From Escherichia phage vB_EcoM_G10400, in the sequence record MK327937.1: a stretch of DNA of 64,000 bases; one strand, written 5' to 3'. Each line of letters opens with the position of its first letter. Position 1 is the first letter of the stretch. The notes under the pieces are model-generated. The model saw nothing but the letters and a program-made list of their open reading frames with translations. It was not told the DNA's origin and searched no databases. The translations under genes were made by a program, and so were the position numbers. Of this stretch, positions 4,040 through 64,000 are shown one piece after another.

Positions 4040-4657
4040 ATGTACCACTTTGTATATGAAACAACAAATCTAATAAATGGTAAAAAGTATATAGGAAAAC
4101 ACTCTACTGATGACTTGAATGATGGTTACCTTGGTTCCGGTAAGGCAATTCAGCAGGCTATAAAGAAATATGGTGAAAACAATTTCTCTAGAACAATACT
4201 AAAAGAGTTTAAAACTTCCGAAGAAGCGTACATGTATGAAGAAGAAATTATAACTCCTGAAATAATAAAAAGCAAAAATTATTATAATATGAAACCTGGT
4301 GGAATTGGTGGAATTGTTATGACTACAGAGGTTATAGCAAAGATGAAAGAATCTTCCGCTAAGAGATTTGAAAACTCACCGGGCACGGTATTAGGTACAA
4401 CTTGTTACACTAATGGAACTAAAAATATTTTTATTAAACCTGGAGAACTTGTTCCAGAAGGATTTGTAAAAGGAATGGTTCATCCTAATAGAAAGTCCAG
4501 AAAAGGATGTAAAGTCAAACCGACTACCACAGGAACTTTTTGGGTCAATAACGGTGCAATAAATAAATTAATACAACCAGACGGTATTATTCCCGACGGA
4601 TTTATTAAAGGTCGTCTCATGAAAAGAGATTCTAAAGGCAAATTTAGTAAGGCATAA
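4040..4657 (+). CDS. segE: GIY-YIG homing endonuclease SegE
   Basis: 205 aa; N-terminal GIY-YIG module (YIGKHS ... GYLGSG); located between inh and uvsW where T4 segE sits. Confidence 0.75.
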   Translation: MYHFVYETTNLINGKKYIGKHSTDDLNDGYLGSGKAIQQAIKKYGENNFSRTILKEFKTSEEAYMYEEEIITPEIIKSKNYYNMKPGGIGGIVMTTEVIAKMKESSAKRFENSPGTVLGTTCYTNGTKNIFIKPGELVPEGFVKGMVHPNRKSRKGCKVKPTTTGTFWVNNGAINKLIQPDGIIPDGFIKGRLMKRDSKGKFSKA

Positions 4658-4659
4658 TT

Positions 4660-6168
4660 ATGGATATTAAAGTACATTTTCACGACTTCAGCCATGTACG
4701 CATCGATTGTGAAGAGAGCACGTTCCACGAATTAAGAGATTTCTTTTCGTTTGAGGCCGATGGATATAGATTTAATCCTCGCTTCAGATATGGCAACTGG
4801 GATGGACGAATCCGTCTTTTAGATTATAATCGTCTTCTTCCATTTGGCTTAGTCGGGCAAATTAAAAAGTTCTGTGATAACTTTGGCTATAAAGCCTGGA
4901 TTGACCCACAAATTAACGAAAAAGAAGAATTATCAAGAAAAGATTTTGATGAATGGCTTTCTAAATTAGAAATCTATTCAGGAAATAAAAGAATTGAACC
5001 GCATTGGTATCAAAAAGATGCAGTGTTCGAAGGATTAGTTAATCGTCGTAGAATTCTTAATCTTCCAACATCCGCTGGTAAATCTTTAATTCAAGCTTTG
5101 CTTGCGCGATATTATTTGGAAAATTATGAAGGCAAAATTCTTATCATTGTTCCAACAACTGCTCTGACAACTCAGATGGCTGATGACTTTGTTGACTATC
5201 GTTTATTCAGTCATGCAATGATAAAGAAAATCGGCGGTGGAGCATCAAAAGATGATAAATATAAAAATGATGCACCGGTCGTTGTTGGTACATGGCAAAC
5301 TGTAGTTAAACAACCAAAAGAATGGTTCTCACAGTTTGGAATGATGATGAATGATGAATGCCATCTTGCTACAGGAAAAAGTATTTCATCTATCATATCA
5401 GGTTTAAATAACTGTATGTTTAAATTTGGTCTATCTGGTTCATTACGTGATGGCAAAGCCAATATCATGCAGTATGTTGGAATGTTTGGTGAAATATTTA
5501 AGCCAGTAACGACTTCTAAGTTAATGGAAGATGGACAAGTAACTGAGCTAAAAATTAATAGTATTTTTCTTCGCTATCCCGATGAGTTCACTACTAAATT
5601 AAAGGGAAAAACTTATCAAGAAGAAATAAAAATTATTACTGGGCTTAGTAAAAGAAATAAATGGATCGCTAAATTAGCTATTAAGCTTGCGCAAAAAGAT
5701 GAAAACGCTTTTGTCATGTTTAAACATGTATCACATGGTAAAGCTATTTTCGATTTAATTAAAAATGAATACGATAAAGTTTATTACGTATCAGGGGAAG
5801 TTGATACCGAAACCCGCAATATAATGAAAACCTTAGCTGAAAATGGTAAAGGAATAATTATAGTAGCTAGTTATGGTGTATTTTCTACTGGTATTTCAGT
5901 TAAAAATCTGCATCACGTTGTTTTAGCGCACGGTGTTAAATCAAAAATCATTGTATTACAAACAATCGGTCGTGTATTACGTAAGCATGGTTCTAAGACA
6001 ATAGCAACCGTCTGGGACCTCATAGATGATTGTGGCGTTAAGCCAAAATCTGCTAATACGAAAAAGAAATATGTTCATTTGAACTATCTTTTAAAACACG
6101 GCATTGATCGTATTCAGCGCTACGCAGATGAAAAATTTAATTACGTAATGAAAACAGTTAATTTATAA
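4660..6168 (+). CDS. uvsW: UvsW RNA-DNA and DNA helicase
   Basis: 502 aa; SF2 helicase motifs (PTSAGKS Walker A, DECH box); synteny. Confidence 0.9.
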   Translation: MDIKVHFHDFSHVRIDCEESTFHELRDFFSFEADGYRFNPRFRYGNWDGRIRLLDYNRLLPFGLVGQIKKFCDNFGYKAWIDPQINEKEELSRKDFDEWLSKLEIYSGNKRIEPHWYQKDAVFEGLVNRRRILNLPTSAGKSLIQALLARYYLENYEGKILIIVPTTALTTQMADDFVDYRLFSHAMIKKIGGGASKDDKYKNDAPVVVGTWQTVVKQPKEWFSQFGMMMNDECHLATGKSISSIISGLNNCMFKFGLSGSLRDGKANIMQYVGMFGEIFKPVTTSKLMEDGQVTELKINSIFLRYPDEFTTKLKGKTYQEEIKIITGLSKRNKWIAKLAIKLAQKDENAFVMFKHVSHGKAIFDLIKNEYDKVYYVSGEVDTETRNIMKTLAENGKGIIIVASYGVFSTGISVKNLHHVVLAHGVKSKIIVLQTIGRVLRKHGSKTIATVWDLIDDCGVKPKSANTKKKYVHLNYLLKHGIDRIQRYADEKFNYVMKTVNL

Positions 6169-6193
6169 GGGCTTCGGCCCTTTGGAGAAAAAG

Positions 6194-15074: not shown

Positions 15075-17131
15075 TACATTTTGAACTTTTTAGACATTCC
15101 GTTGATGTTAACCAAAGAAGCCAAGATTTGAGAAACTTCATTTTCCTCTTCTTTTGATTCTTCTACAAGGAATTGATTAAATCCAGCCATTGGACGAACT
15201 TCACCAGTTTCCATTAGATGGTCTCCATCATATACTGATTCTTCTAATTGTTCAGAAGGAGGAACGATTGTACCTTCGATTAGATACTTGTTATAAGCAG
15301 TTTCTTTCATAAAGTACGTACTTACTTTATTAATCTTCAGTAAAATTCCACGTGGTAGAATAACTTCAGCTTCTGATGGAAATCCTGATAAATGACCTGG
15401 AACGATAACTTTGATTCGCTCAGCTCCTTTAATTATCATACCCACGCTAGTTTCTGCATCTTCATTAGCATATGTAGAATGACTACCCATATGCATCAAA
15501 TCTTCTGCATCAACGGAACCTTCTCCTTCACCAGAAAATACTGCGCCGGAATCATCTAGAGCCATATAGTTTTTACCATGCTCACCGAAGATATTTGGTT
15601 TAAGCGATGTGGATACGAAGTTCTTGAAATAGAACATTTTATTTTCAATGTTATGACGCAAAGTTTTAAAGGTAACTTCTTGCCCACGGTAAAGTGTAGT
15701 TCCTGGAGGAAGAACTGATCCTTTGGCAAAGGCAGAATCTAACGTCTCGATGTGCTTAATAGCTCGTTCCATGTATTCTTCACGGGTAGAATCTGGTTTA
15801 CCCAAAAGGAACGAGTTCATTTCAACATATGAATCTGCACAATAATCTTCAATTACATCAGATTCAGCCTGAGTCAGTCCTTTTGGAGCTACTTCGGTGC
15901 TTGCGTATTCATATGCCTGGGCAGCAGATTCATTAATCAATTTATAAATGCCATTCATGACAAATTGAATAATAGCTGTCTTTTCATCTGGTGTGGTTTT
16001 AGAACCTTTAACTAAATCATTAATAATTTTCTTAATAACATCAAAGCTATTAGAAATATTAATGTCAGCAAGATCGCTTAAAATTTTATCAGTTTTATAA
16101 TCAAAGAATTCTTTATTCTTTAAATATTCTTGAGAACCTTGATATGTTATATCGCTCTGCAACTTGATAGATGGATCACGTAAACGTGCATGGGCCAATG
16201 CAATATGATTTCGGAAGCTTTCTAGTTCATAATCGTTAGATTTAAAACGAGAAGCACTTCTCATACCACCGATAGCTCCTTTGCTGAAGTTTGAACCAAT
16301 CTGGATAACGCCAGAGTTCATCGGACCTTCTGCTTTATATACCGGAACTTTAGATTCAAACTCTTGATATTTCTTGGCAGCAAAGCTATCACCCTGAAGT
16401 GAAGCATCAACAGTAGAATATTGAGCTTGTGCTGCTAATCGACGACTTATTTTAGTTTTCTGAATAACAGCTTGGTCCGTGCGCTTATCATTTTCTAAAG
16501 CAATAGAAGCAGCAACAGCGACAGCTTTAGGAACAGCATTTCCTGTTTTAACGTCTACATAAACATCACCGACCTTTGATTCAACTTTTGTGAATAACTC
16601 AGTTGAAATAGGAGGTACACCTGGAATGTCTTCTAAATTGGCATTTTTACGGTAAACCATAATATATGCATATTTCTTATCATAGTCCCAGATTTCCTTT
16701 AAAAGAACATATCGACCTGCTCCTTTAGTACGTACTAAACGGTCAGCAATAACTTGCATTTGACGAGCTGCGCCATTTGTTTTACTTTTTAGTACGCGGA
16801 ATAGGCATGCGTCGATTTTATACTGTTTCATTGTTTGAAGAGCAGTATCAAAAACGGCATTAATGACACCAATTGGATTTCCACCCAAGTTTTTAAGCTT
16901 AACTAATGATAGTTTCTCATTAACACCTATCATTACGATATGCATCATTTTATCGCCTGGCTTAACGTTTTTATTCGTATCACCACCAGAGGTGTATGTA
17001 CAAAATCTAAATCCAGGAAGCACGCTTTCTTCGCCGGCTTGAATAGCAAAAATTTGTGGTATTTTATGCTTAGGATTTAAGTTAACAACCGGCGCCGAAG
17101 CGCCGTCAAATAATTCTGTAATAAGTTCCAT
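15074..17131 (-). CDS. Alt-like ADP-ribosyltransferase paralog
   Basis: 685 aa; N-terminus MELITELFD and blocks shared with the adjacent alt; ART signature residues present (TLYRGQ, FVSTSL, EAEVILPRG). Confidence 0.75.
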   Translation of the reverse strand: MELITELFDGASAPVVNLNPKHKIPQIFAIQAGEESVLPGFRFCTYTSGGDTNKNVKPGDKMMHIVMIGVNEKLSLVKLKNLGGNPIGVINAVFDTALQTMKQYKIDACLFRVLKSKTNGAARQMQVIADRLVRTKGAGRYVLLKEIWDYDKKYAYIMVYRKNANLEDIPGVPPISTELFTKVESKVGDVYVDVKTGNAVPKAVAVAASIALENDKRTDQAVIQKTKISRRLAAQAQYSTVDASLQGDSFAAKKYQEFESKVPVYKAEGPMNSGVIQIGSNFSKGAIGGMRSASRFKSNDYELESFRNHIALAHARLRDPSIKLQSDITYQGSQEYLKNKEFFDYKTDKILSDLADINISNSFDVIKKIINDLVKGSKTTPDEKTAIIQFVMNGIYKLINESAAQAYEYASTEVAPKGLTQAESDVIEDYCADSYVEMNSFLLGKPDSTREEYMERAIKHIETLDSAFAKGSVLPPGTTLYRGQEVTFKTLRHNIENKMFYFKNFVSTSLKPNIFGEHGKNYMALDDSGAVFSGEGEGSVDAEDLMHMGSHSTYANEDAETSVGMIIKGAERIKVIVPGHLSGFPSEAEVILPRGILLKINKVSTYFMKETAYNKYLIEGTIVPPSEQLEESVYDGDHLMETGEVRPMAGFNQFLVEESKEEENEVSQILASLVNINGMSKKFKM

Positions 17132-19189: not shown

Positions 19190-19241
19190 CATAGCCTCTC
19201 TAGTGTTTATTCTATTTATAAAATTAAAGGCCCGAAGGCCT

Positions 19242-19430
19242 TTAATAATCTAGTGGTAAGAGAGTACGGTATATTTCAAACTTTGGACCTTTTTCATAGG
19301 CATCAAATGTTTCTGTGAATTTATTATAAGCATATGCATCTACAAATTCGAGAATGACTTGTGATACAGAAGTAGAAACATCTCCACCTTCTTTTTGAGC
19401 AATGACAATTGTTTCTAAGTAAGCTTTCAT
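19242..19430 (-). CDS. Hypothetical small protein between ligase and alt
   Basis: 62-aa ORF; overlaps ligase stop. Confidence 0.5.
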   Translation of the reverse strand: MKAYLETIVIAQKEGGDVSTSVSQVILEFVDAYAYNKFTETFDAYEKGPKFEIYRTLLPLDY

Positions 19431-24010: not shown

Positions 24011-24042
24011 TGGAAAATAAAAAAGGACTCCCGAAGGAGTCC
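24011..24042 (-). terminator. Intrinsic terminator after small basic protein gene
   Basis: GGACTCC-CGAA-GGAGTCC hairpin (24025-24042) followed on minus strand by U-run. Confidence 0.6.
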
Positions 24043-24047
24043 TCAAC

Positions 24048-24468: not shown

Positions 24469-24717
24469 TTACTTCAGTGTTACCACAAAGTGACGAACTG
24501 CTTTTCGTGCAGCAGAAGCCAGAGGCTTAGCATACTTAAGTTCATCTTTTTCCTGAAGCTCAGCGGCTAATGCAGTTTGAGCAGGATTTAGATGTTTGAA
24601 ATAACGCAGGATTTCAAGAGCTTCGGCTTCAACATCAATAGATGCGCCATAGTTTTCGTGACCATTATTCCATGCGTTTCGTTGCAGTTCAAGAGCGTGT
24701 TGTAATTGTTTAATCAT
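24469..24717 (-). CDS. rIII: rIII lysis inhibition accessory protein
   Basis: 82 aa; position upstream of ligase cluster as in T4. Confidence 0.8.
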   Translation of the reverse strand: MIKQLQHALELQRNAWNNGHENYGASIDVEAEALEILRYFKHLNPAQTALAAELQEKDELKYAKPLASAARKAVRHFVVTLK

Positions 24718-50182: not shown

Positions 50183-50187
50183 ATTGA

Positions 50188-50210
50188 GGGAGCCTTCGGG
50201 TTCCCTTTTT
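50188..50210 (+). terminator. Intrinsic terminator after gene 35
   Basis: GGGAGCC-TTCG-GGTTCCC hairpin followed by TTTTT. Confidence 0.6.
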
Positions 50211-54239: not shown

Positions 54240-54244
54240 TAAGA

Positions 54245-54258
54245 GGGGCTTCGGCCCC
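54245..54258 (+). other. GC stem-loop with UUCG tetraloop in the 37-38 intergenic region
   Basis: GGGGC-TTCG-GCCCC immediately before the gp38 SD GGAGG; only a short T-run, so attenuator or RNA stability element rather than strong terminator. Confidence 0.45.
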
Positions 54259-54270
54259 TTGGAGGTTTAT

Positions 54271-58492: not shown

Positions 58493-58522
58493 ATAGTACC
58501 ACAGTATGCTTTGGTTGTAAAC
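58493..58522 (-). promoter_or_regulatory. Candidate early promoter for motA (GTTTAC, 18-nt spacer, TACTAT)
   Basis: Minus-strand GTTTAC 58517-58522, TACTAT 58493-58498; motA SD GGAG and ATG follow. Confidence 0.5.
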
Positions 58523-58552
58523 CGTTTTGTGAAAAAATTTTAAAATAAAAAA

Positions 58553-58570
58553 GGAGAGCCGAGGCTCTCC
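58553..58570 (-). terminator. Intrinsic terminator downstream of gene 52 operon
   Basis: GGAGAGCC / GGCTCTCC inverted repeat followed on minus strand by U-run. Confidence 0.55.
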
Positions 58571-58576
58571 CTAAAA

Positions 58577-58726
58577 TTACTGCATGACAGTTATCACAGT
58601 CATGATAACACGTTGAATTCCGAACGCAAGAAGACCTCCTGCTACGGCTGGAACAACACCTAAACCCGCCAGTAAAATGCTACCAGATACTAATGCAGCG
58701 CTTGTAATACCTATGAATGGACTCAT
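58577..58726 (-). CDS. Unlisted 49-aa hydrophobic membrane peptide (52.1-like)
   Basis: ATG overlaps gene 52 stop (ATGA); MSPFIGITSAALVSGSILLAGLGVVPAVAGGLLAFG...; two predicted TM helices. Confidence 0.45.
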   Translation of the reverse strand: MSPFIGITSAALVSGSILLAGLGVVPAVAGGLLAFGIQRVIMTVITVMQ

Positions 58727-60051
58727 TTGATTTCCTCTAAATCTTTGGTGTATTCTGTAACTACATCAGTAGTTTTCCAATATTCGTTTTCTTCTTTTTT
58801 AGCTTTAGCTTCTTCAGCAAGTTTCTTCGCTTCATCGGAAGTCATATGAAAAATATTCATTCCAACTAGTTTATCAACATAAGAAGAATACATATCGATT
58901 TTCGAAAGTTCTTCGGTCAGTTCTTTACGAGTTTTACCCTGTACAACAATTTCACCTGAAATTACTTTCTTAATGAAATGTGCCTTGGCAAAGGCTAAAC
59001 GAAATGCTGATTCAGTTTCTTTAATTTTGTTATCAATTCGTTTTTGGACATAAGTTTTACGAACTTCAACGAAGTCTTTAATTAAATCGACTACGTTATC
59101 GTAAACTTGTAGTTTTCCTTTCTCATTAATAACCGTAATATTCTGAGAACGACGCTCAATCAACCCGAAGTCTTTCATAATTTTTGCATGGCGTTCTTCT
59201 TCGTTATTGCTCAAAGAGTATTCTTTGCGGAATTTAACTTTGAAGCCAAAACCATGCTCACCGCAAGCATCATCCCATGTAATGAAGCCTTTATCTTCAA
59301 GTGGGTCTAAGATTTTACTCACATAAGTTTCACGATCATACTTATATGGAATCTCAGTGATATGCATTTGAGTTCGTGAAGTAAACTTATATGTTCCACG
59401 AATTTCATACTGCCCATCAATTTCAACAACTTCACCACGAAATTCTGGGAATTCTACCTTCGGTTTAGTTACTTTCTTTCCTTGAAGAGCTTGCAGTACA
59501 GCTTTCTTAACAGAAGAAACACTATGAGGAAGAATGTAAGTTGCATAACCAGTTGCAATACCGGAAACGCCATTAAGAAGAACAGTAGGAATAATAGGCA
59601 AATAGAAAGCAGGCGGAATGTGTTCTTTATCTTGATGTACCGGAGCATATTCAGTATCTTTATATACGTTATAGAAATTTTTACTTACACGAGCAAAAAT
59701 ATAACGACTTGCCGCTGCCTTTTGGACAGTACGAGAACCGAAGTTTCCTTGGCCATCTAACAAAGGAAAGTTATTATTCCAAGTGTTAGCCATCAAAGCA
59801 CCTGCGTCTTGTGCAGAGTTTTCGCCATGGTGATATCCAAGGTCCGCTACACCACCTGCAATAGAAGCGAGTTTGTGAAACTTATCTTTATTTCCTCGTG
59901 CCAAATCAAGAGCTCGAGCAATAACAAATCGTTGAACTGGCTTAAATCCATCAATCATATTTGGGATAGCACGATTTTCAACCGTGTACATAGCATAAGC
60001 CAATGCTTCATTATCAATGATACTTTTTAAATCGCGATTATTCAGTTGCAT
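58723..60051 (-). CDS. 52: DNA topoisomerase II medium subunit gp52
   Basis: 442 aa; GyrA/ParC-like N-terminal breakage-reunion domain (AMYTVENRAIP..., active-site Tyr region). Confidence 0.9.
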   Translation of the reverse strand: MQLNNRDLKSIIDNEALAYAMYTVENRAIPNMIDGFKPVQRFVIARALDLARGNKDKFHKLASIAGGVADLGYHHGENSAQDAGALMANTWNNNFPLLDGQGNFGSRTVQKAAASRYIFARVSKNFYNVYKDTEYAPVHQDKEHIPPAFYLPIIPTVLLNGVSGIATGYATYILPHSVSSVKKAVLQALQGKKVTKPKVEFPEFRGEVVEIDGQYEIRGTYKFTSRTQMHITEIPYKYDRETYVSKILDPLEDKGFITWDDACGEHGFGFKVKFRKEYSLSNNEEERHAKIMKDFGLIERRSQNITVINEKGKLQVYDNVVDLIKDFVEVRKTYVQKRIDNKIKETESAFRLAFAKAHFIKKVISGEIVVQGKTRKELTEELSKIDMYSSYVDKLVGMNIFHMTSDEAKKLAEEAKAKKEENEYWKTTDVVTEYTKDLEEIK

Positions 60052-60055
60052 AAAT

Positions 60056-60196
60056 TTACCATACTAGTGAATGTAGTGCCATAATAACATCAGAAATGAA
60101 AAGCACGACTTGAATTAATCCGAACATTACTCCATAATATAGTGCTACTAATAAAGTAGCAAGGGCTAATGAATAGCCCAAGATTTTCTTAATCAT
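60056..60196 (-). CDS. Unlisted 46-aa hydrophobic peptide upstream of gene 52
   Basis: MIKKILGYSLALATLLVALYYGVMFGLIQVVLF...; overlaps the next upstream small ORF by 8 nt. Confidence 0.4.
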   Translation of the reverse strand: MIKKILGYSLALATLLVALYYGVMFGLIQVVLFISDVIMALHSLVW

Positions 60197-60347
60197 TAGT
60201 AGATAACAACACAAATGTTAAATATGCACACATACCCTGAGCTAAAGCTTGTGAAAACACGCTGCTGGCATCAATACAGATAGTTAAAACACATGCTACT
60301 ATCCAACAAATAAATGAAATAACTCCTAATAATTTTGCAATATTCAT
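60189..60347 (-). CDS. Unlisted 52-aa membrane peptide (possibly ac, acridine sensitivity locus)
   Basis: GAGGA SD then MNIAKLLGVISFICWIVACVLTIC...; lies between stp and 52 where T4 ac maps; assignment tentative. Confidence 0.4.
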   Translation of the reverse strand: MNIAKLLGVISFICWIVACVLTICIDASSVFSQALAQGMCAYLTFVLLSTND

Positions 60348-60354
60348 ATTTTCC

Positions 60355-60435
60355 TCACTGGCGTCCGAAGACGCCTTTAGTTTTAAGATTATTACGATAG
60401 AACTGCATCACGTGTTCGTTGTGGAAATTACTCAT
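60355..60435 (-). CDS. stp: Stp peptide (26 aa), activator of the host PrrC anticodon nuclease
   Basis: Translates exactly to [26 protein letters not shown]; start ATG shares a base with ndd stop (TAATG). Confidence 0.85.
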
Positions 60436-60893
60436 TAATATGCCTGCAAAACGAATTTAAAATTATCAGCCAACATACGGTTCATTTCTTCAAGTGTTTG
60501 ATACTCAGAATGATGATTACGAGTAAACGCTAAAGCTAACTGTCCTTTTCCAAATCCCGTCGTCAGAGGTTTCATCTTAGAAGCAGGCAGATAAAATACT
60601 GTGTATGGAACATTGTTATTTGCAATAGTACGTGCAAGCTGAGACCGACGTTGACGAATATGACTTAGAACTGCACTGAATCCTTGCTTAGAACGCTGAT
60701 TACCTACATAAAATCGTGCTGACACACATGGATTACTAAATGGACGACCATCTAATTTACTTACTAAAAAGTAAAATCCAGGTTTAGATAAAATATCTTT
60801 ATGCGGGGTTCCCAAAAACCATTCACCACCCTTGATTGTACCAATAACAGTAGCGCCTGCGTTGTTCAGATCAGTAACAGTCATGTATTTCAT
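60435..60893 (-). CDS. ndd: Nucleoid disruption protein Ndd
   Basis: About 151 aa from [18 protein letters not shown]; matches my recall of T4 Ndd; ORF-track start 60947 is an extension. Confidence 0.8.
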
Positions 60894-60951
60894 ATTAATT
60901 TCCTCTAAATTATTTTCTACTCCATGGCCGCATGAATACACGGCCATTAAA

Positions 60952-61167
60952 TTAATCGTCGCAGTCGACGCTCAATTCCCAAAACTCTTCTACGGTATAA
61001 GTTTCAGTATCATTTTCAATACAGAAACGTTCATTACTGTTATTTACTAAAGTAGCGTTAACTGTCATTTTCTCGCTGGTGCTCTTAAGAGGCGAAATAC
61101 GAATTAACTGATCACCGTTATCTAAACAGAAAATTTCGCCAACTTTTACATCTTTAAAACTTTTCAT
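60952..61167 (-). CDS. Hypothetical protein (ndd.1-like)
   Basis: 71-aa ORF. Confidence 0.5.
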
Positions 61168-61282
61168 AATTCACCTCAAGGAGTATAAAATCCAAACGCA
61201 GTTGTTGACCATCCCATCCAATATGGAAAATTTGCACCAATGTAAAACATAAGAATATAAAACCAACCGCTCAGCAAATTCA

Positions 61283-61501
61283 TCATTTTACACCATTCCA
61301 AATTGTTTCAACCACGGATTTTAAACCATTTTGATGAATATCCATTCCGACTACTGCCATCAAATAGATTCCAACTACAACTGAACCTAAGGCAAAAATC
61401 AGCATGAAAATGAATAAAGCCGGAAAAATATTATCGAAAAACCATTCAATAAATGTAAAAGCACTGCGTTTACGCTTCATATTTTCCTCACATAAATCCA
61501 A
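61283..61501 (-). CDS. Small membrane protein, hypothetical
   Basis: Hydrophobic core FPALFIFMLIFALGSVVVGIYLMAVVG; start uncertain. Confidence 0.45.
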   Translation of the reverse strand: MDLCEENMKRKRSAFTFIEWFFDNIFPALFIFMLIFALGSVVVGIYLMAVVGMDIHQNGLKSVVETIWNGVK

Positions 61502-61601
61502 AGTAAACGTTTAATACATCAATCATTAAAACGATTGGGAATATACTCAAAACTATTAGTATTATAACTACATTCCATATAGCTTTAACAATCTTTTTCA
61601 T
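61488..61601 (-). CDS. Small membrane peptide (37 aa), hypothetical
   Basis: GGAGG SD then MKKIVKAIWNVVIILIVLSIFPIVLMIDVL; ORF-track longer version would include promoter. Confidence 0.45.
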   Translation of the reverse strand: MKKIVKAIWNVVIILIVLSIFPIVLMIDVLNVYFGFM

Positions 61602-61629
61602 TTTCTGTTCCTCCGTAGTTGATAGGGTA

Positions 61630-61659
61630 ATAGTACCACGGAAGAACAGTCTTGTAAAC
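61630..61659 (-). promoter_or_regulatory. Candidate early promoter (GTTTAC, 18-nt spacer, TACTAT)
   Basis: Minus-strand GTTTAC 61654-61659 and TACTAT 61630-61635. Confidence 0.45.
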
Positions 61660-61843
61660 AACTTTTTAAAAATATTCGTAATAAATGTGAATACCAACTA
61701 CTACCGCTGAAACTTGCACAACCCACCACGCACAAGCAATAAGTACAGAATTCAAAATTTTCATAATAACCTCATTACAAAAGTAAATGTTAAACAAATT
61801 ACTGGAATACTAATTAACCAAACAAAACACCACCACAGTGAAC

Positions 61844-62107
61844 TCATAGTTCAATCTCAGCGATTTTCATTTCATTATTGTTAATAGCATTTTTAAGACT
61901 ATCCGAAAGAATTACATTCCAGTGGTCATTCATATGACCATTAACTAAGCGTGTAATTTCTTCGGGAGTTGAAAAATAAGGCGTATCAGACTCCCAATGC
62001 GATAATCCTAAGCGAGTATAAATCATACCTTCATCATCGCTAGAATATTCAACTGACACAAACTCATCAGTTATTTTATGCTTAGCATAATAAAATTTAA
62101 ATTTCAT
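61844..62107 (-). CDS. Hypothetical protein (87 aa)
   Basis: GGAGAG SD then MKFKFYYAKHKITDEF...; ORF-track start 62206 would include promoter. Confidence 0.5.
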   Translation of the reverse strand: MKFKFYYAKHKITDEFVSVEYSSDDEGMIYTRLGLSHWESDTPYFSTPEEITRLVNGHMNDHWNVILSDSLKNAINNNEMKIAEIEL

Positions 62108-62141
62108 TTTACTCTCCAAATCAGTATCAGTTGATAGTTGT

Positions 62142-62171
62142 ATAGTACCACGGTCCTTGTGGTATGTAAAC
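62142..62171 (-). promoter_or_regulatory. Candidate early promoter (GTTTAC, 18-nt spacer, TACTAT)
   Basis: Minus-strand GTTTAC 62166-62171 and TACTAT 62142-62147. Confidence 0.5.
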
Positions 62172-62187
62172 TGTTTTGTGAAATTTT

Positions 62188-62745
62188 TTAAATGGAAAGA
62201 TACCATCCGTTGTAGTTGCTTTTTCTTACAACCTTACGAAGGTCTTCTCTGTCACCGATGAACTTCGGAGTGTACTGGATGACACCTGGATGAATTTCTT
62301 TAGTGTTGAATATAATTATACAGTCAGCGACTTGATGATTTAGAATGGGCCCTAGATTTATTCCAGAACCGTATGGATACTCTCCGCTGCATCCTGTTGT
62401 TACAGAAATCCAACGTGAGTCAGTTTGATGTGTCTTAACTTCTACACGAAGCCCGCAGTATTTTGGATGCGCCAATACATCCCATGCATATGTGTACGGA
62501 TCATCGACATCTTCTTGGCCTTTATTGACATATCCGCTTAGCCAATCTGCCACAAAAAACTCTGCGTACACAGCGATACGGCATCTTTCGATAACTTCTG
62601 CCTTATCCTGATTTGGGTTTTGTTTTAAAGAGTATCTTGCAGTATCAGCAATTTTGACCTTCATTTCATTGGTTAAATCGCTGTTCGATAGAGTAAATGT
62701 CGGAATCTGAAATAGTCTCTGTAACCCAGGATTCGTTTTCTGCAT
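62188..62745 (-). CDS. denB: Endonuclease IV (dC-specific ssDNA endonuclease)
   Basis: 185 aa; synteny adjacent to rIIB; matches T4 denB length. Confidence 0.8.
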   Translation of the reverse strand: MQKTNPGLQRLFQIPTFTLSNSDLTNEMKVKIADTARYSLKQNPNQDKAEVIERCRIAVYAEFFVADWLSGYVNKGQEDVDDPYTYAWDVLAHPKYCGLRVEVKTHQTDSRWISVTTGCSGEYPYGSGINLGPILNHQVADCIIIFNTKEIHPGVIQYTPKFIGDREDLRKVVRKSNYNGWYLSI

Positions 62746-62810
62746 TTAAACTTTCCTTTATGTCGGAATCACTGATATTCATATAAATCATAATTTCTCT
62801 TAAAACAAAA

Positions 62811-62822
62811 GGGCCGAAGCCC
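62811..62822. terminator. GGGC-CGAA-GCCC hairpin with flanking T/A runs
   Basis: Tetraloop hairpin between denB and upstream small ORF. Confidence 0.5.
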
Positions 62823-62827
62823 TTATT

Positions 62828-63022
62828 TTATTTGAATTGTGCAATTCTTTTCTCTAAACAGTCAGCATAAGATTTCATTGAGATAAACTGCGAAAGTAAT
62901 AGTTCTTGCTCAACTGCGTTAACTGTTAGAAATTTTGCGCTTTCTAAAAATTTACTCAGTGCATTAATTTTGAGCATTAATTGATCGTATTCTTCTTTTA
63001 CTCGTGCTTGATAACCTAACAT
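62828..63022 (-). CDS. Hypothetical protein (denB.1-like)
   Basis: 64-aa ORF. Confidence 0.5.
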   Translation of the reverse strand: MLGYQARVKEEYDQLMLKINALSKFLESAKFLTVNAVEQELLLSQFISMKSYADCLEKRIAQFK

Positions 63023-63038
63023 AATTTTCCTTAGTTAA

Positions 63039-63050
63039 GGGCCGAAGCCC
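63039..63050 (-). terminator. GGGC-CGAA-GCCC hairpin immediately after rIIB stop
   Basis: Same hairpin sequence as at 62811-62822. Confidence 0.5.
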
Positions 63051-63989
63051 TTATTTAAATTGTTCAGTAACGTCTTCAACTACTTCGTATTGGCAGGTAC
63101 GCATTTTAGCATCGTTGTAATCAATCGGAATTGATACTACATCGCGAGGATGAACTTTAACTTTTACAACTCGGCTGGTTGAACTGCCAAAGTGACGAAT
63201 ATAAGATTTAGAACACACATGCAGACCGCGAGAACAAGTCTGTGTATCATCGTCATTCACACGAGTACGTGGCATTTTAACTACTTTACCGGGACTGTTA
63301 TCAAAAGTATTTGAGTGGCAGTCAAAGTAATTGCTGCGAACTACTTTCCAAGCATAGAAGTAACCATCTTCTGTAATTTCAATATCGTTTGCTACCAAGA
63401 AATCAAAGAGTCGAGATACCGCTTTTTGGCTCGGGTTTTCCAACAGATTTTCCAAGAACGGAAAATAAAATTCAAAGTTTTCGCCTTTTTCCATCGAATC
63501 GAGAATACGATCAACTAAACCAGATCGCAATTCAATATTTTGATAGAACAAGCTTCCACCTTCAATTCGAACATCACCGGAAATATATTTTTCAACAGCG
63601 CGACGAACATTAATTTTTTGTGCCGCTTCTTCCAATTTATCTGCAACAAGCAGATTAAGAATTTCCTGGAAGTTTGAATGAGTATTAGGAGTTGCGTTAT
63701 AAGTTACACCGTCAACAGTAATTGAAATGAATTTTTTAGATGCATTCCAAATAATGTCAGATTTAGCAACTGGAGCAATAACTGCATCGCTATTAACTTT
63801 AACTGTAATATCACCACTAATAGTAACTTTAGAGCGCTCAGCTTCTTCAGCATTTTTCAAAACACGACGGATTGTGTCCACCGATACACCTTGCCAATCA
63901 GCCAATTCCTGTTGGGTGTAATTACCACTTGAATACAGTTTGACAATTTCAGATTGTTCGTTTTTGGTCAGGCATTTAATATTGTACAT
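63051..63989 (-). CDS. rIIB: rIIB membrane-associated rapid-lysis protein
   Basis: 312 aa; MYNIKCLTKNEQSEIVKLYSSGNYTQQELADW matches T4 rIIB as I recall it. Confidence 0.9.
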   Translation of the reverse strand: MYNIKCLTKNEQSEIVKLYSSGNYTQQELADWQGVSVDTIRRVLKNAEEAERSKVTISGDITVKVNSDAVIAPVAKSDIIWNASKKFISITVDGVTYNATPNTHSNFQEILNLLVADKLEEAAQKINVRRAVEKYISGDVRIEGGSLFYQNIELRSGLVDRILDSMEKGENFEFYFPFLENLLENPSQKAVSRLFDFLVANDIEITEDGYFYAWKVVRSNYFDCHSNTFDNSPGKVVKMPRTRVNDDDTQTCSRGLHVCSKSYIRHFGSSTSRVVKVKVHPRDVVSIPIDYNDAKMRTCQYEVVEDVTEQFK

Positions 63990-64000
63990 AATTTTCCTTA

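Follow-up and report, generated by a model that had tools for sequence, protein, structure and literature searches.

The stretch of DNA analysed here, hereafter the window, comprises 64,000 nucleotides of Escherichia phage vB_EcoM_G10400 (record MK327937.1). Between positions 60,056 and 60,893 it carries the genes ndd, stp, ac and 52.1, all read leftward from the minus strand, with ndd.1 as their upstream neighbour and gene 52 following (Table 1). This layout was taken directly from the letters, by listing every open reading frame (ORF) of at least 20 aa on both strands between 59400 and 61500. The preliminary description, made from the sequence and a program-made list of ORFs, had counted stp and three other small ORFs as missing from that list. 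There are two besides stp in 60056-60893, namely ac and 52.1, and not three; stp and both of these would be missed by an ORF listing with a default floor of 60 aa.

Table 1. Position of the genes and RNA features discussed in the text.
Feature	Position in window	Strand	Match or remark
rnlB, RNA ligase 2, 334 aa	110..1114	-	PDB 2hvq (T4 RNA ligase 2), E 5.8e-224
pseT, polynucleotide kinase/3'-phosphatase, 301 aa	27684..28589	-	PDB 1ltq (T4 PNK), E 1e-190
rnlA (gene 63), RNA ligase 1, 374 aa	30338..31462	-	PDB 2c5u (T4 Rnl1), E 5.5e-253
gene 52, topoisomerase II medium subunit	58723..60051 (ATG 60051)	-	440/442 identical to T4 gp52
52.1, hydrophobic, 46 aa	60056..60196 (ATG 60196)	-	DUF7396 (PF24129), E 3.5e-23, full length
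ac, 'acridine resistance' locus, hydrophobic membrane peptide, 52 aa	60189..60347 (TAA 60191-60189)	-	T4 Ac
GAGG Shine-Dalgarno of ac	60353..60356	-	duplex with 16S 3' end -6.5 kcal/mol, top ~5% of background
stp, 26 aa	60355..60435 (ATG 60435-60433, TGA 60357-60355)	-	26/26 identical to T4 Stp
C(UUCG)G tetraloop hairpin, GGCGUC-UUCG-GACGCC	60360..60375	-	stp codons 21-26, GGC GUC UUC GGA CGC CAG
ndd, nucleoid disruption protein, 152 aa	60435..60893 (ATG 60893, TAA 60437-60435)	-	PF06591, E 1.4e-95
10-bp hairpin between ndd.1 and ndd	60924..60947	-	60890-60960 folds at -16.0 kcal/mol
ndd.1, same direction as ndd, 71 aa	60952..61167	-	69/71 identical to T4 Ndd.1; phrog_2183

The 838-base region is 100% identical to the one in Escherichia phage vB_EcoM_G2540, 98-99% identical to those of RB27, RB3, PP01 and RB14, and present in 548 phage records. 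Over the first 25 kb of the window, the best deposited genome reaches 97.6%, and the phage is therefore a mosaic Tequatrovirus, which follows neither T4 nor G2540 throughout. Each of the four ORFs has a full-length match in Pfam or PHROG: Ndd to PF06591 (317.8 bits for a cut-off of 25), Stp to PF08133 over residues 1-26 of 26 (75.3 bits for a gathering cut-off of 25), gp52.1 to DUF7396 (81.9 bits for a cut-off of 27) and Ac, which has no Pfam or NCBIfam model, to phrog_2501 (E 3.7e-25). NCBIfam holds no model for Ndd, Stp, gp52.1 or the siphovirus Stp-like peptides described below either, and a scan of the entire window against Rfam at the gathering threshold gave no match.

The corresponding segment of T4 (NC_000866.4, 163876-166040) has the same genes from ndd to 52 in the same order and on the same strand. 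It also has the same junctions, i.e. the 1-nt overlap of ndd and stp, the stp UGA within the Shine-Dalgarno (SD) of ac and the 8-nt overlap of ac and 52.1, and an identical hairpin sequence in stp. Stp is identical in the two phages, whereas the other proteins are 97-99% identical: Ndd matches at 149 of 151 residues plus one insertion (152 vs 151 aa, dN/dS 0.03), gp52.1 at 45 of 46, and the 52-aa ORF, for which an alignment to T4 Ac had been proposed as a check, matches Ac at 51 of 51 residues plus one inserted Thr (52 vs 51 aa). Hence, this ORF is Ac. About 2-7% of the nucleotides differ from T4, nearly all synonymously. In the records of T4, PP01 and RB27, the genes of this block are annotated with these very overlaps. 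We are thus highly confident that the window carries the canonical T4-type early gene block. The block is not new, being annotated in full in T4; it is textbook biology and no discovery.

The arrangement extends beyond close relatives of T4. A Gaprivervirus and a Klebsiella phage both have ndd, a small ORF, an Ac-like ORF, 52.1 and gene 52 in this order; in the Klebsiella phage, a 57-aa hydrophobic ORF with the same TAATG junction takes the place of stp. A search of viral contigs with Ndd returned only five loci, all near-identical, and divergent matches from a phage collection were used for comparison instead. Relative to T4, T2, REP4, the Gaprivervirus and the Klebsiella phage, dN/dS (Nei-Gojobori) ranges from 0 to 0.38 across ndd, stp, ac and 52.1, with pS up to about 0.7. 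All four ORFs are under purifying selection, and since dN/dS remains this low even with synonymous sites near saturation, chance ORFs are excluded.

Junctions and translation of the small genes

The preliminary description had given the 26-residue translation of stp and its one-nucleotide overlap with the ndd stop, and direct reading of the minus strand bears out both: the junction reads TAT TAA TG A, base 60435 being common to the TAA of ndd and the ATG of stp. Its placement of the stp stop codon within the SD of the 52-aa ORF is also right, as the last two bases of the stp UGA overlap the GAGG (60356-60353), which is followed by AAAAU (5 nt) and then by the ac ATG at 60347. So is the 8-nt overlap that it reported between the 52-aa and the 46-aa ORFs. 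The latter is gp52.1, whose ATG lies 8 nt inside ac (AATGATTAA; ...ACT AAT GAT TAA), an overlap shared with T4, the Gaprivervirus and the Klebsiella phage.

SD strength was computed as the duplex of the 16S 3' end with the 20 nt that precede each start codon; the background 5th percentile is -6.0 kcal/mol. Strong SDs are found only at ndd (AGAGGAAA, -6.0 kcal/mol) and ac. There is no SD of its own at stp (duplex of only -2.5 kcal/mol) or at 52.1 (+0.9 kcal/mol), and a weak one (-2.8 kcal/mol) at gene 52, whose ATG is 4 nt past the 52.1 stop. The SD-poor cistrons are precisely those that begin at or just past the preceding stop. Judged solely from this geometry and from SD strength, the simplest reading is that stp, 52.1 and gene 52 are translationally coupled. 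Ribosomes ending ndd would restart on stp at UAAUG, and ribosomes loaded at the ac SD would enter 52.1 through the 8-nt overlap and would probably cross the 4-nt gap to gene 52. At the upstream end of the block, a further ATG at 60947 is in frame with ndd and extends the mechanical ORF to 170 aa. We rejected it as the ndd start: it has no SD (+0.3 kcal/mol), lies in the stem of the 10-bp hairpin and is not matched by an in-frame ATG in T4, from which a 2-nt difference upstream of ndd opens this extension.

Proteome methods tend to miss peptides that are short and hydrophobic. In the time-resolved omics of T4, the transcripts of stp, ac and 52.1 are classed as early, and the proteins Ndd and Ndd.1 are detected early, whereas Stp, Ac and gp52.1 are undetected (Class_P = NA; PMC9697503 Table S2). 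One might then suspect that ac, 52.1 or both are untranslated chance frames in an AT-rich spacer, the more so as 52.1 or stp is left unannotated in many deposited genomes. Yet, tblastn recovers both frames intact and ungapped, ac in 471 phage records and 52.1 in 910, down to about 50% identity (50% for 52.1 in Klebsiella T4-like phages). Their dN/dS values near synonymous saturation are 0.09-0.38 (0.09-0.28 for gp52.1), ac has no non-synonymous change relative to T4 or fHoEco02, and their start/stop overlap is conserved across genera. Given, in addition, the strong SD of ac and an ac phenotype that is genetically defined in T4, we find chance frames barely credible.

The roles of these proteins can be proposed by sequence identity with their T4 counterparts. 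Ndd would disrupt the host nucleoid. Ac would be a small membrane protein that causes the acridine sensitivity of infection; by a simple hydropathy measure, its GRAVY is 1.42 and its 15-residue Kyte-Doolittle windows reach 2.8. In T4, wild-type ac makes infection sensitive to acridine and acriflavine and its loss gives resistance, and in a 2025 preprint Ac is proposed to enter the membrane and to block efflux through AcrAB-TolC (bioRxiv 10.1101/2025.06.30.662393). The name 'acridine resistance' is thus misleading, as the wild-type gene gives sensitivity. Since gp52.1 is hydrophobic (GRAVY 1.68) and invariably coupled to ac, it may be a membrane protein that is produced along with Ac as its partner.

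Stp, tRNA repair and relatives of Stp

In T4, Stp alone is necessary and sufficient for the activation of PrrC (PMC3014915). Stp acts directly on the type Ic enzyme EcoprrI. PrrC senses the inhibition of this enzyme and cuts the anticodon loop of tRNA-Lys; Stp also inhibits EcoR124I, and does not inhibit type Ia enzymes (PMC3014915). How it inhibits EcoprrI is still described as unknown (PMC12707154). The activity resides in the N-terminal 18 residues, with suppressor mutations clustered at residues 4-14, and the loss of the eight C-terminal codons lowers it only moderately (PMC3014915). These 18 residues are fully conserved in the window. Stp of this phage, being identical to the T4 peptide, would thus inhibit type Ic restriction (EcoprrI, EcoR124I) through them and, in prr+ hosts, unleash the PrrC anticodon nuclease. 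The earlier statement that Stp triggers PrrC agrees with this literature, with the qualification that it does so through EcoprrI.

The preliminary description had also named pseT and rnlA as encoding the tRNA repair enzymes that counter PrrC, and had added that rnlB is present. The matches to structures of the T4 enzymes confirm the positions it gave for pseT and rnlA and the presence of rnlB. Both activities of the kinase/phosphatase are represented (Pfam HAD_PNKP and AAA_33), and so are the ligase and C-terminal domains of RNA ligase 1 (RNA_lig_T4_1 and T4_Rnl1_C). The literature agrees with the function proposed for pseT and rnlA: in T4, Pnk and Rnl1 heal and seal the tRNA cut by PrrC, while Rnl2 goes unmentioned in that account (PMC3014915), and we found no support for a link between rnlB and PrrC. 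By identity with T4, the Pnk and RNA ligase 1 of this phage would likewise repair the cut tRNA. Some 29-32 kb separate pseT and rnlA from stp, and some 59 kb separate rnlB from it, so that the link is a functional one and these genes form no cluster with stp.

There is another allele of stp, the T2 type (T2, SHFML-26, fHoEco02). Its first 18 residues are identical or almost identical to those of the window (SHFML-26 has one substitution), stp has the same position after ndd and the same TAATG overlap, and ac has an SD. The C-terminus differs (...KNFGILGFKK or ...KNS, for a total of 27-28 aa) and is encoded by AT-rich sequence.

Relatives of Stp also occur well outside T4-like phages. A tblastn search with Stp matched residues 1-19 in about 190 genomes of 40-50 kb, and the four of these records that we read contain unannotated ORFs of 26-27 aa, each beginning with a start codon of its own and in most cases preceded by an SD. 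Scanning viral contigs with a degenerate DNA pattern yielded 50 loci. The contigs measure 30-53 kb for about 40 of these, and the set includes Kagunavirus (RP180) copies nearly identical to T4 Stp. The siphovirus members of the family, from Kagunavirus (such as RP180), Drexlerviridae (such as phSE-2, Samwise and SA30RD; a 26-residue peptide) and Skatevirus D10 (MSNWHNEHIMQWYRRRIKAITNSYEVQ), have 25-27 aa and share the core S-x-[FW]-HNEH-[VI]-MQ-[FW]-YR. They pass the gathering score of PF08133 (35-70 bits for a cut-off of 25). Their genomic context is unrelated to that of the T4 block (after the lysis genes in Kagunavirus), and ndd, ac, 52.1 and the hairpin are absent from it. By homology to T4 Stp, these peptides may act against type Ic enzymes and PrrC. 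The core pattern had no match in 185,579 representative bacterial and archaeal genomes and a single one among plasmids, in a 44-kb record, the size of a Kagunavirus. In the searchable literature we found no report of siphovirus homologues of Stp.

In Drexlerviridae, a homologue of the phosphatase domain of Pnk (annotated 'polynucleotide kinase', a HAD phosphatase) is encoded 0.5-1.3 kb downstream of the Stp-like ORF. Neither a kinase domain nor a ligase homologue was found at these loci, and the proximity of the two ORFs may be lineage synteny only.

A C(UUCG)G hairpin within the end of stp

The last codons of stp fold into a hairpin of six Watson-Crick pairs capped by a C(UUCG)G tetraloop, which alone has a predicted stability of -11.5 kcal/mol and which ends 3 nt before the ac SD. 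This motif was first described in 1988 in T4 mRNA (recounted in PMC4371310), and the stp hairpin has the same C-G-closed UUCG loop, GC-rich stem and unusual stability as the hairpins of T4 mRNAs. The window contains 13 C(UUCG)G hairpins, compared with 0.73 in shuffled sequences, an enrichment of about 18-fold that agrees with the discovery of the motif in T4 mRNA. Unlike several of the other copies (AAGGGC-UUCG-GCCCUU, terminator-like in our scan), the one in stp is inside coding sequence. No larger structure surrounds it, as the 131-nt fold around stp is not more stable than shuffles (z = -0.30). We also considered a longer hairpin in which the ac SD would be sequestered, and dropped it because the added pairs contribute only about 0.8 kcal/mol.

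Could the hairpin be a Rho-independent terminator of ndd-stp, with ac, 52.1 and 52 expressed from a separate promoter? The G2540 record annotates exactly this position as 'putative transcriptional terminator, -10.30', the stem is GC-rich and stable, and a promoter-like sequence (TTGCTA-17-TATTAT) lies inside 52.1 at 60162-60134. Yet, the sense (minus) strand continues after the stem with AGUGAGGAAAAUAUG, which has no U-tract, and the hairpin is terminator-like in the scan only on the plus strand, where it is followed by the T-run of TTTAGTTTTA. A Rho-independent terminator would have its U-tract on the transcribed minus strand, and there it is AGUGAGGAAAAU that follows the stem. The 13 nt between the hairpin and the ac ATG hold no good promoter. 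A scan for sigma-70 promoters over 58500-64000 found 24 where 19.5 are expected, which is not above chance, and we claim no promoter here. Termination at this hairpin is in our view quite unlikely.

A second possibility is that the hairpin has no role as RNA and is an accident of the C-terminal peptide of Stp or of local drift. Several observations are compatible with this. The T2-type alleles lack a stable hairpin (-3 to -7 kcal/mol), from which it follows that the hairpin is not essential. The eight C-terminal codons are largely dispensable for activity, which leaves the region free to drift. Finally, the stem offers no compensatory change that would reveal selection on pairing: it is invariant apart from a terminal G-C to G-U change, and covariation gives no support. 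Codon choice points the other way. Among the 3,072 synonymous encodings of KGVFGRQ, the one in the window ties for the most stable (-12.3, for a mean of -4.4 and a standard deviation of 1.9), and its five hairpin codons, which are rare and GC-ending in a genome of 36% GC, have a probability of about 2e-4 under local codon usage. The stem is kept in all the T4-like loci examined that have the GVFGR tail, with the terminal G-U as its only variant and UUUG replacing the UUCG loop in a Gaprivervirus. The Stp of a Gaprivervirus is identical to that of the window at only 20 of 26 residues, and yet the whole stem is kept. The excess of such hairpins in the window also speaks against an accident, which we hold to be improbable.

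The siphoviruses bear on the converse idea that the tail of Stp is dictated purely by the hairpin. In Kagunavirus, a near-identical tail (...KTKGVFGK) is encoded as GGG GTG TTT GGA and forms no hairpin. Since KGVFG is kept there hairpin-free, we rejected this idea; the tail can exist without the hairpin, which is an overlay at the RNA level specific to the T4 type. We note that such an overlay on the tail fits the moderate loss of activity upon deletion of the eight C-terminal codons (PMC3014915).

The reading that we favour is that the stp hairpin may be a selected RNA element, either a barrier that would stabilise the 3' end of the ndd-stp mRNA or a modulator that would tune initiation at ac. 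One can combine this with the distribution of Stp into a broader proposal. The 3' end of stp would have a dual use, its pre-existing KGVFG tail being recoded into a C(UUCG)G hairpin that controls the fate of the ndd-stp mRNA or gates the ac SD and hence the ac-52.1-52 train. Stp itself would be widespread, and mostly unannotated, in virulent enterobacterial phages (Tevenvirinae, Drexlerviridae, Kagunavirus, Skatevirus), where, by homology to T4 Stp, its target would be type I restriction and PrrC would be the guard against it. We put forward this joint proposal tentatively, as plausible and somewhat short of probable.

Implications for annotation and for the Stp family

The phage thus carries the standard Stp/Pnk/Rnl1 set of offence and repair, and the standard membrane pair of Ac and gp52.1. 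There is value in this for annotation. The G2540 record, 100% identical over the region, leaves stp and 52.1 uncalled and labels the stp hairpin a terminator, and many further records omit or mislabel these genes. The hairpin formed by codon choice and the wider Stp family, in T1-like phages, Kagunavirus and Skatevirus, are modest additions to a known block. Natural variants of Stp would help to define the mechanism by which type Ic enzymes are inhibited.

Stp homologues outside the T4-like phages

Siphoviruses of the Drexlerviridae, Skatevirus and Kagunavirus carry unannotated homologues of the anticodon nuclease activator peptide Stp, 25-27 aa long, in about 190 phage records. These homologues exceed the gathering score of Pfam family PF08133, each ORF has its own start codon, and most have a Shine-Dalgarno sequence (SD). 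Homologues of this type were not found in the representative bacterial genomes searched, nor are they reported in the searchable literature. In Drexlerviridae, the Stp-like ORF is followed on its own strand, at a distance of 0.5-1.3 kb, by a 178-aa homologue of the 3'-phosphatase (HAD) domain of Pnk, labelled 'polynucleotide kinase' in the records. Neither a kinase domain nor an RNA ligase homologue was found in the same loci, and hence this proximity may reflect lineage synteny only.

Reading frames and signals around the block

A 2-nt difference from T4 creates an in-frame ATG upstream of ndd, and the mechanical ndd ORF is therefore 170 aa long. This ATG lacks an SD and lies within the stem of a 10-bp hairpin, immediately followed by a GGAG motif. 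At the other end of the block, 52.1 contains a promoter-like site, TTGCTA-17-TATTAT, with the ATG of gene 52 some 85 nt downstream. The site could serve gene 52 as a promoter of its own, but it is a match to consensus only, and in our scan promoter consensus matches in the region around 52.1 were not above chance. Counting stems of 4 bp or more, C(UUCG)G hairpins number 13 in the window, where shuffled sequence would give 0.73. Several are of the AAGGGC-UUCG-GCCCUU form, which the scan scored as terminator-like.

Coordinates of features in the window and in comparison loci from other phage records (L-numbers; positions within the locus after the colon)
Feature	Location	Strand
Upstream extension of ndd, ATG at 60947	60894-60947	minus
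10-bp hairpin	60924-60947	minus
GGAG motif	60923-60920	minus
Promoter-like site in 52.1	60134-60162	minus
C(UUCG)G hairpins	6167-6182, 24618-24629, 50186-50207, 54243-54260, 61954-61971	plus
C(UUCG)G hairpins	1671-1688, 4214-4227, 17090-17105, 19223-19246, 24023-24044, 60360-60375, 62809-62824, 63036-63053	minus
Siphovirus Stp-like ORFs	L015:1201-1281, L016:1201-1281, L017:1201-1284, L018:1201-1281; many among L020-L068	
Pnk-phosphatase homologue	L018:1758-2294, L016:2080-2454; 12 more Drexlerviridae loci	
T2 ac	L014:1501-1653	
Extra 53-aa ORF and divergent Ac	L012:1316-1659 (phage REP4); also L019, L024, L059	
57-aa ORF of vB_Kpn_K65_evo1	L013:1195-1368	
Uncalled stp and 52.1 in G2540	L001:1959-2039 and 2198-2338	

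Variation, annotation and mosaicism among T4-like phages

The ac gene of the deposited T2 genome (AP018813.1) is a null allele, because codon 11 is nonsense (TCA to TAA). In some Tequatroviruses, stp and ac are separated by an additional hydrophobic ORF of 53 aa. Their Ac is divergent (global alignment gives 25/53 identical residues, and tblastn 48%) and adjoins a gp52.1 identical at 45/46 positions, a pairing that is a sign of local mosaic exchange. In the T4-like Klebsiella phage vB_Kpn_K65_evo1, the place of stp is taken by a 57-aa hydrophobic ORF whose overlap with ndd is again TAATG; next come Ac-like and 52.1 ORFs, which overlap each other by the same 8 nt.

Public records, OL964735.1, NC_055723.1 and OP168898.1 among them, contain annotation gaps and errors at the ndd-stp-ac-52.1 locus. 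The record of phage vB_EcoM_G2540 (MK327936.1) leaves stp and 52.1 uncalled and gives the stp hairpin as a terminator. Elsewhere the annotation over the locus reads 'naphthalene 1,2-dioxygenase', 'sugar ABC transporter permease' or 'D5 protein'.

The best match of positions 1-25000 among deposited phage genomes is vB_EcoM_G4507, at 97.6%, with none higher, while 60056-60893 is 100% identical to G2540. On these sequence identities, the source of the window is a mosaic Tequatrovirus.
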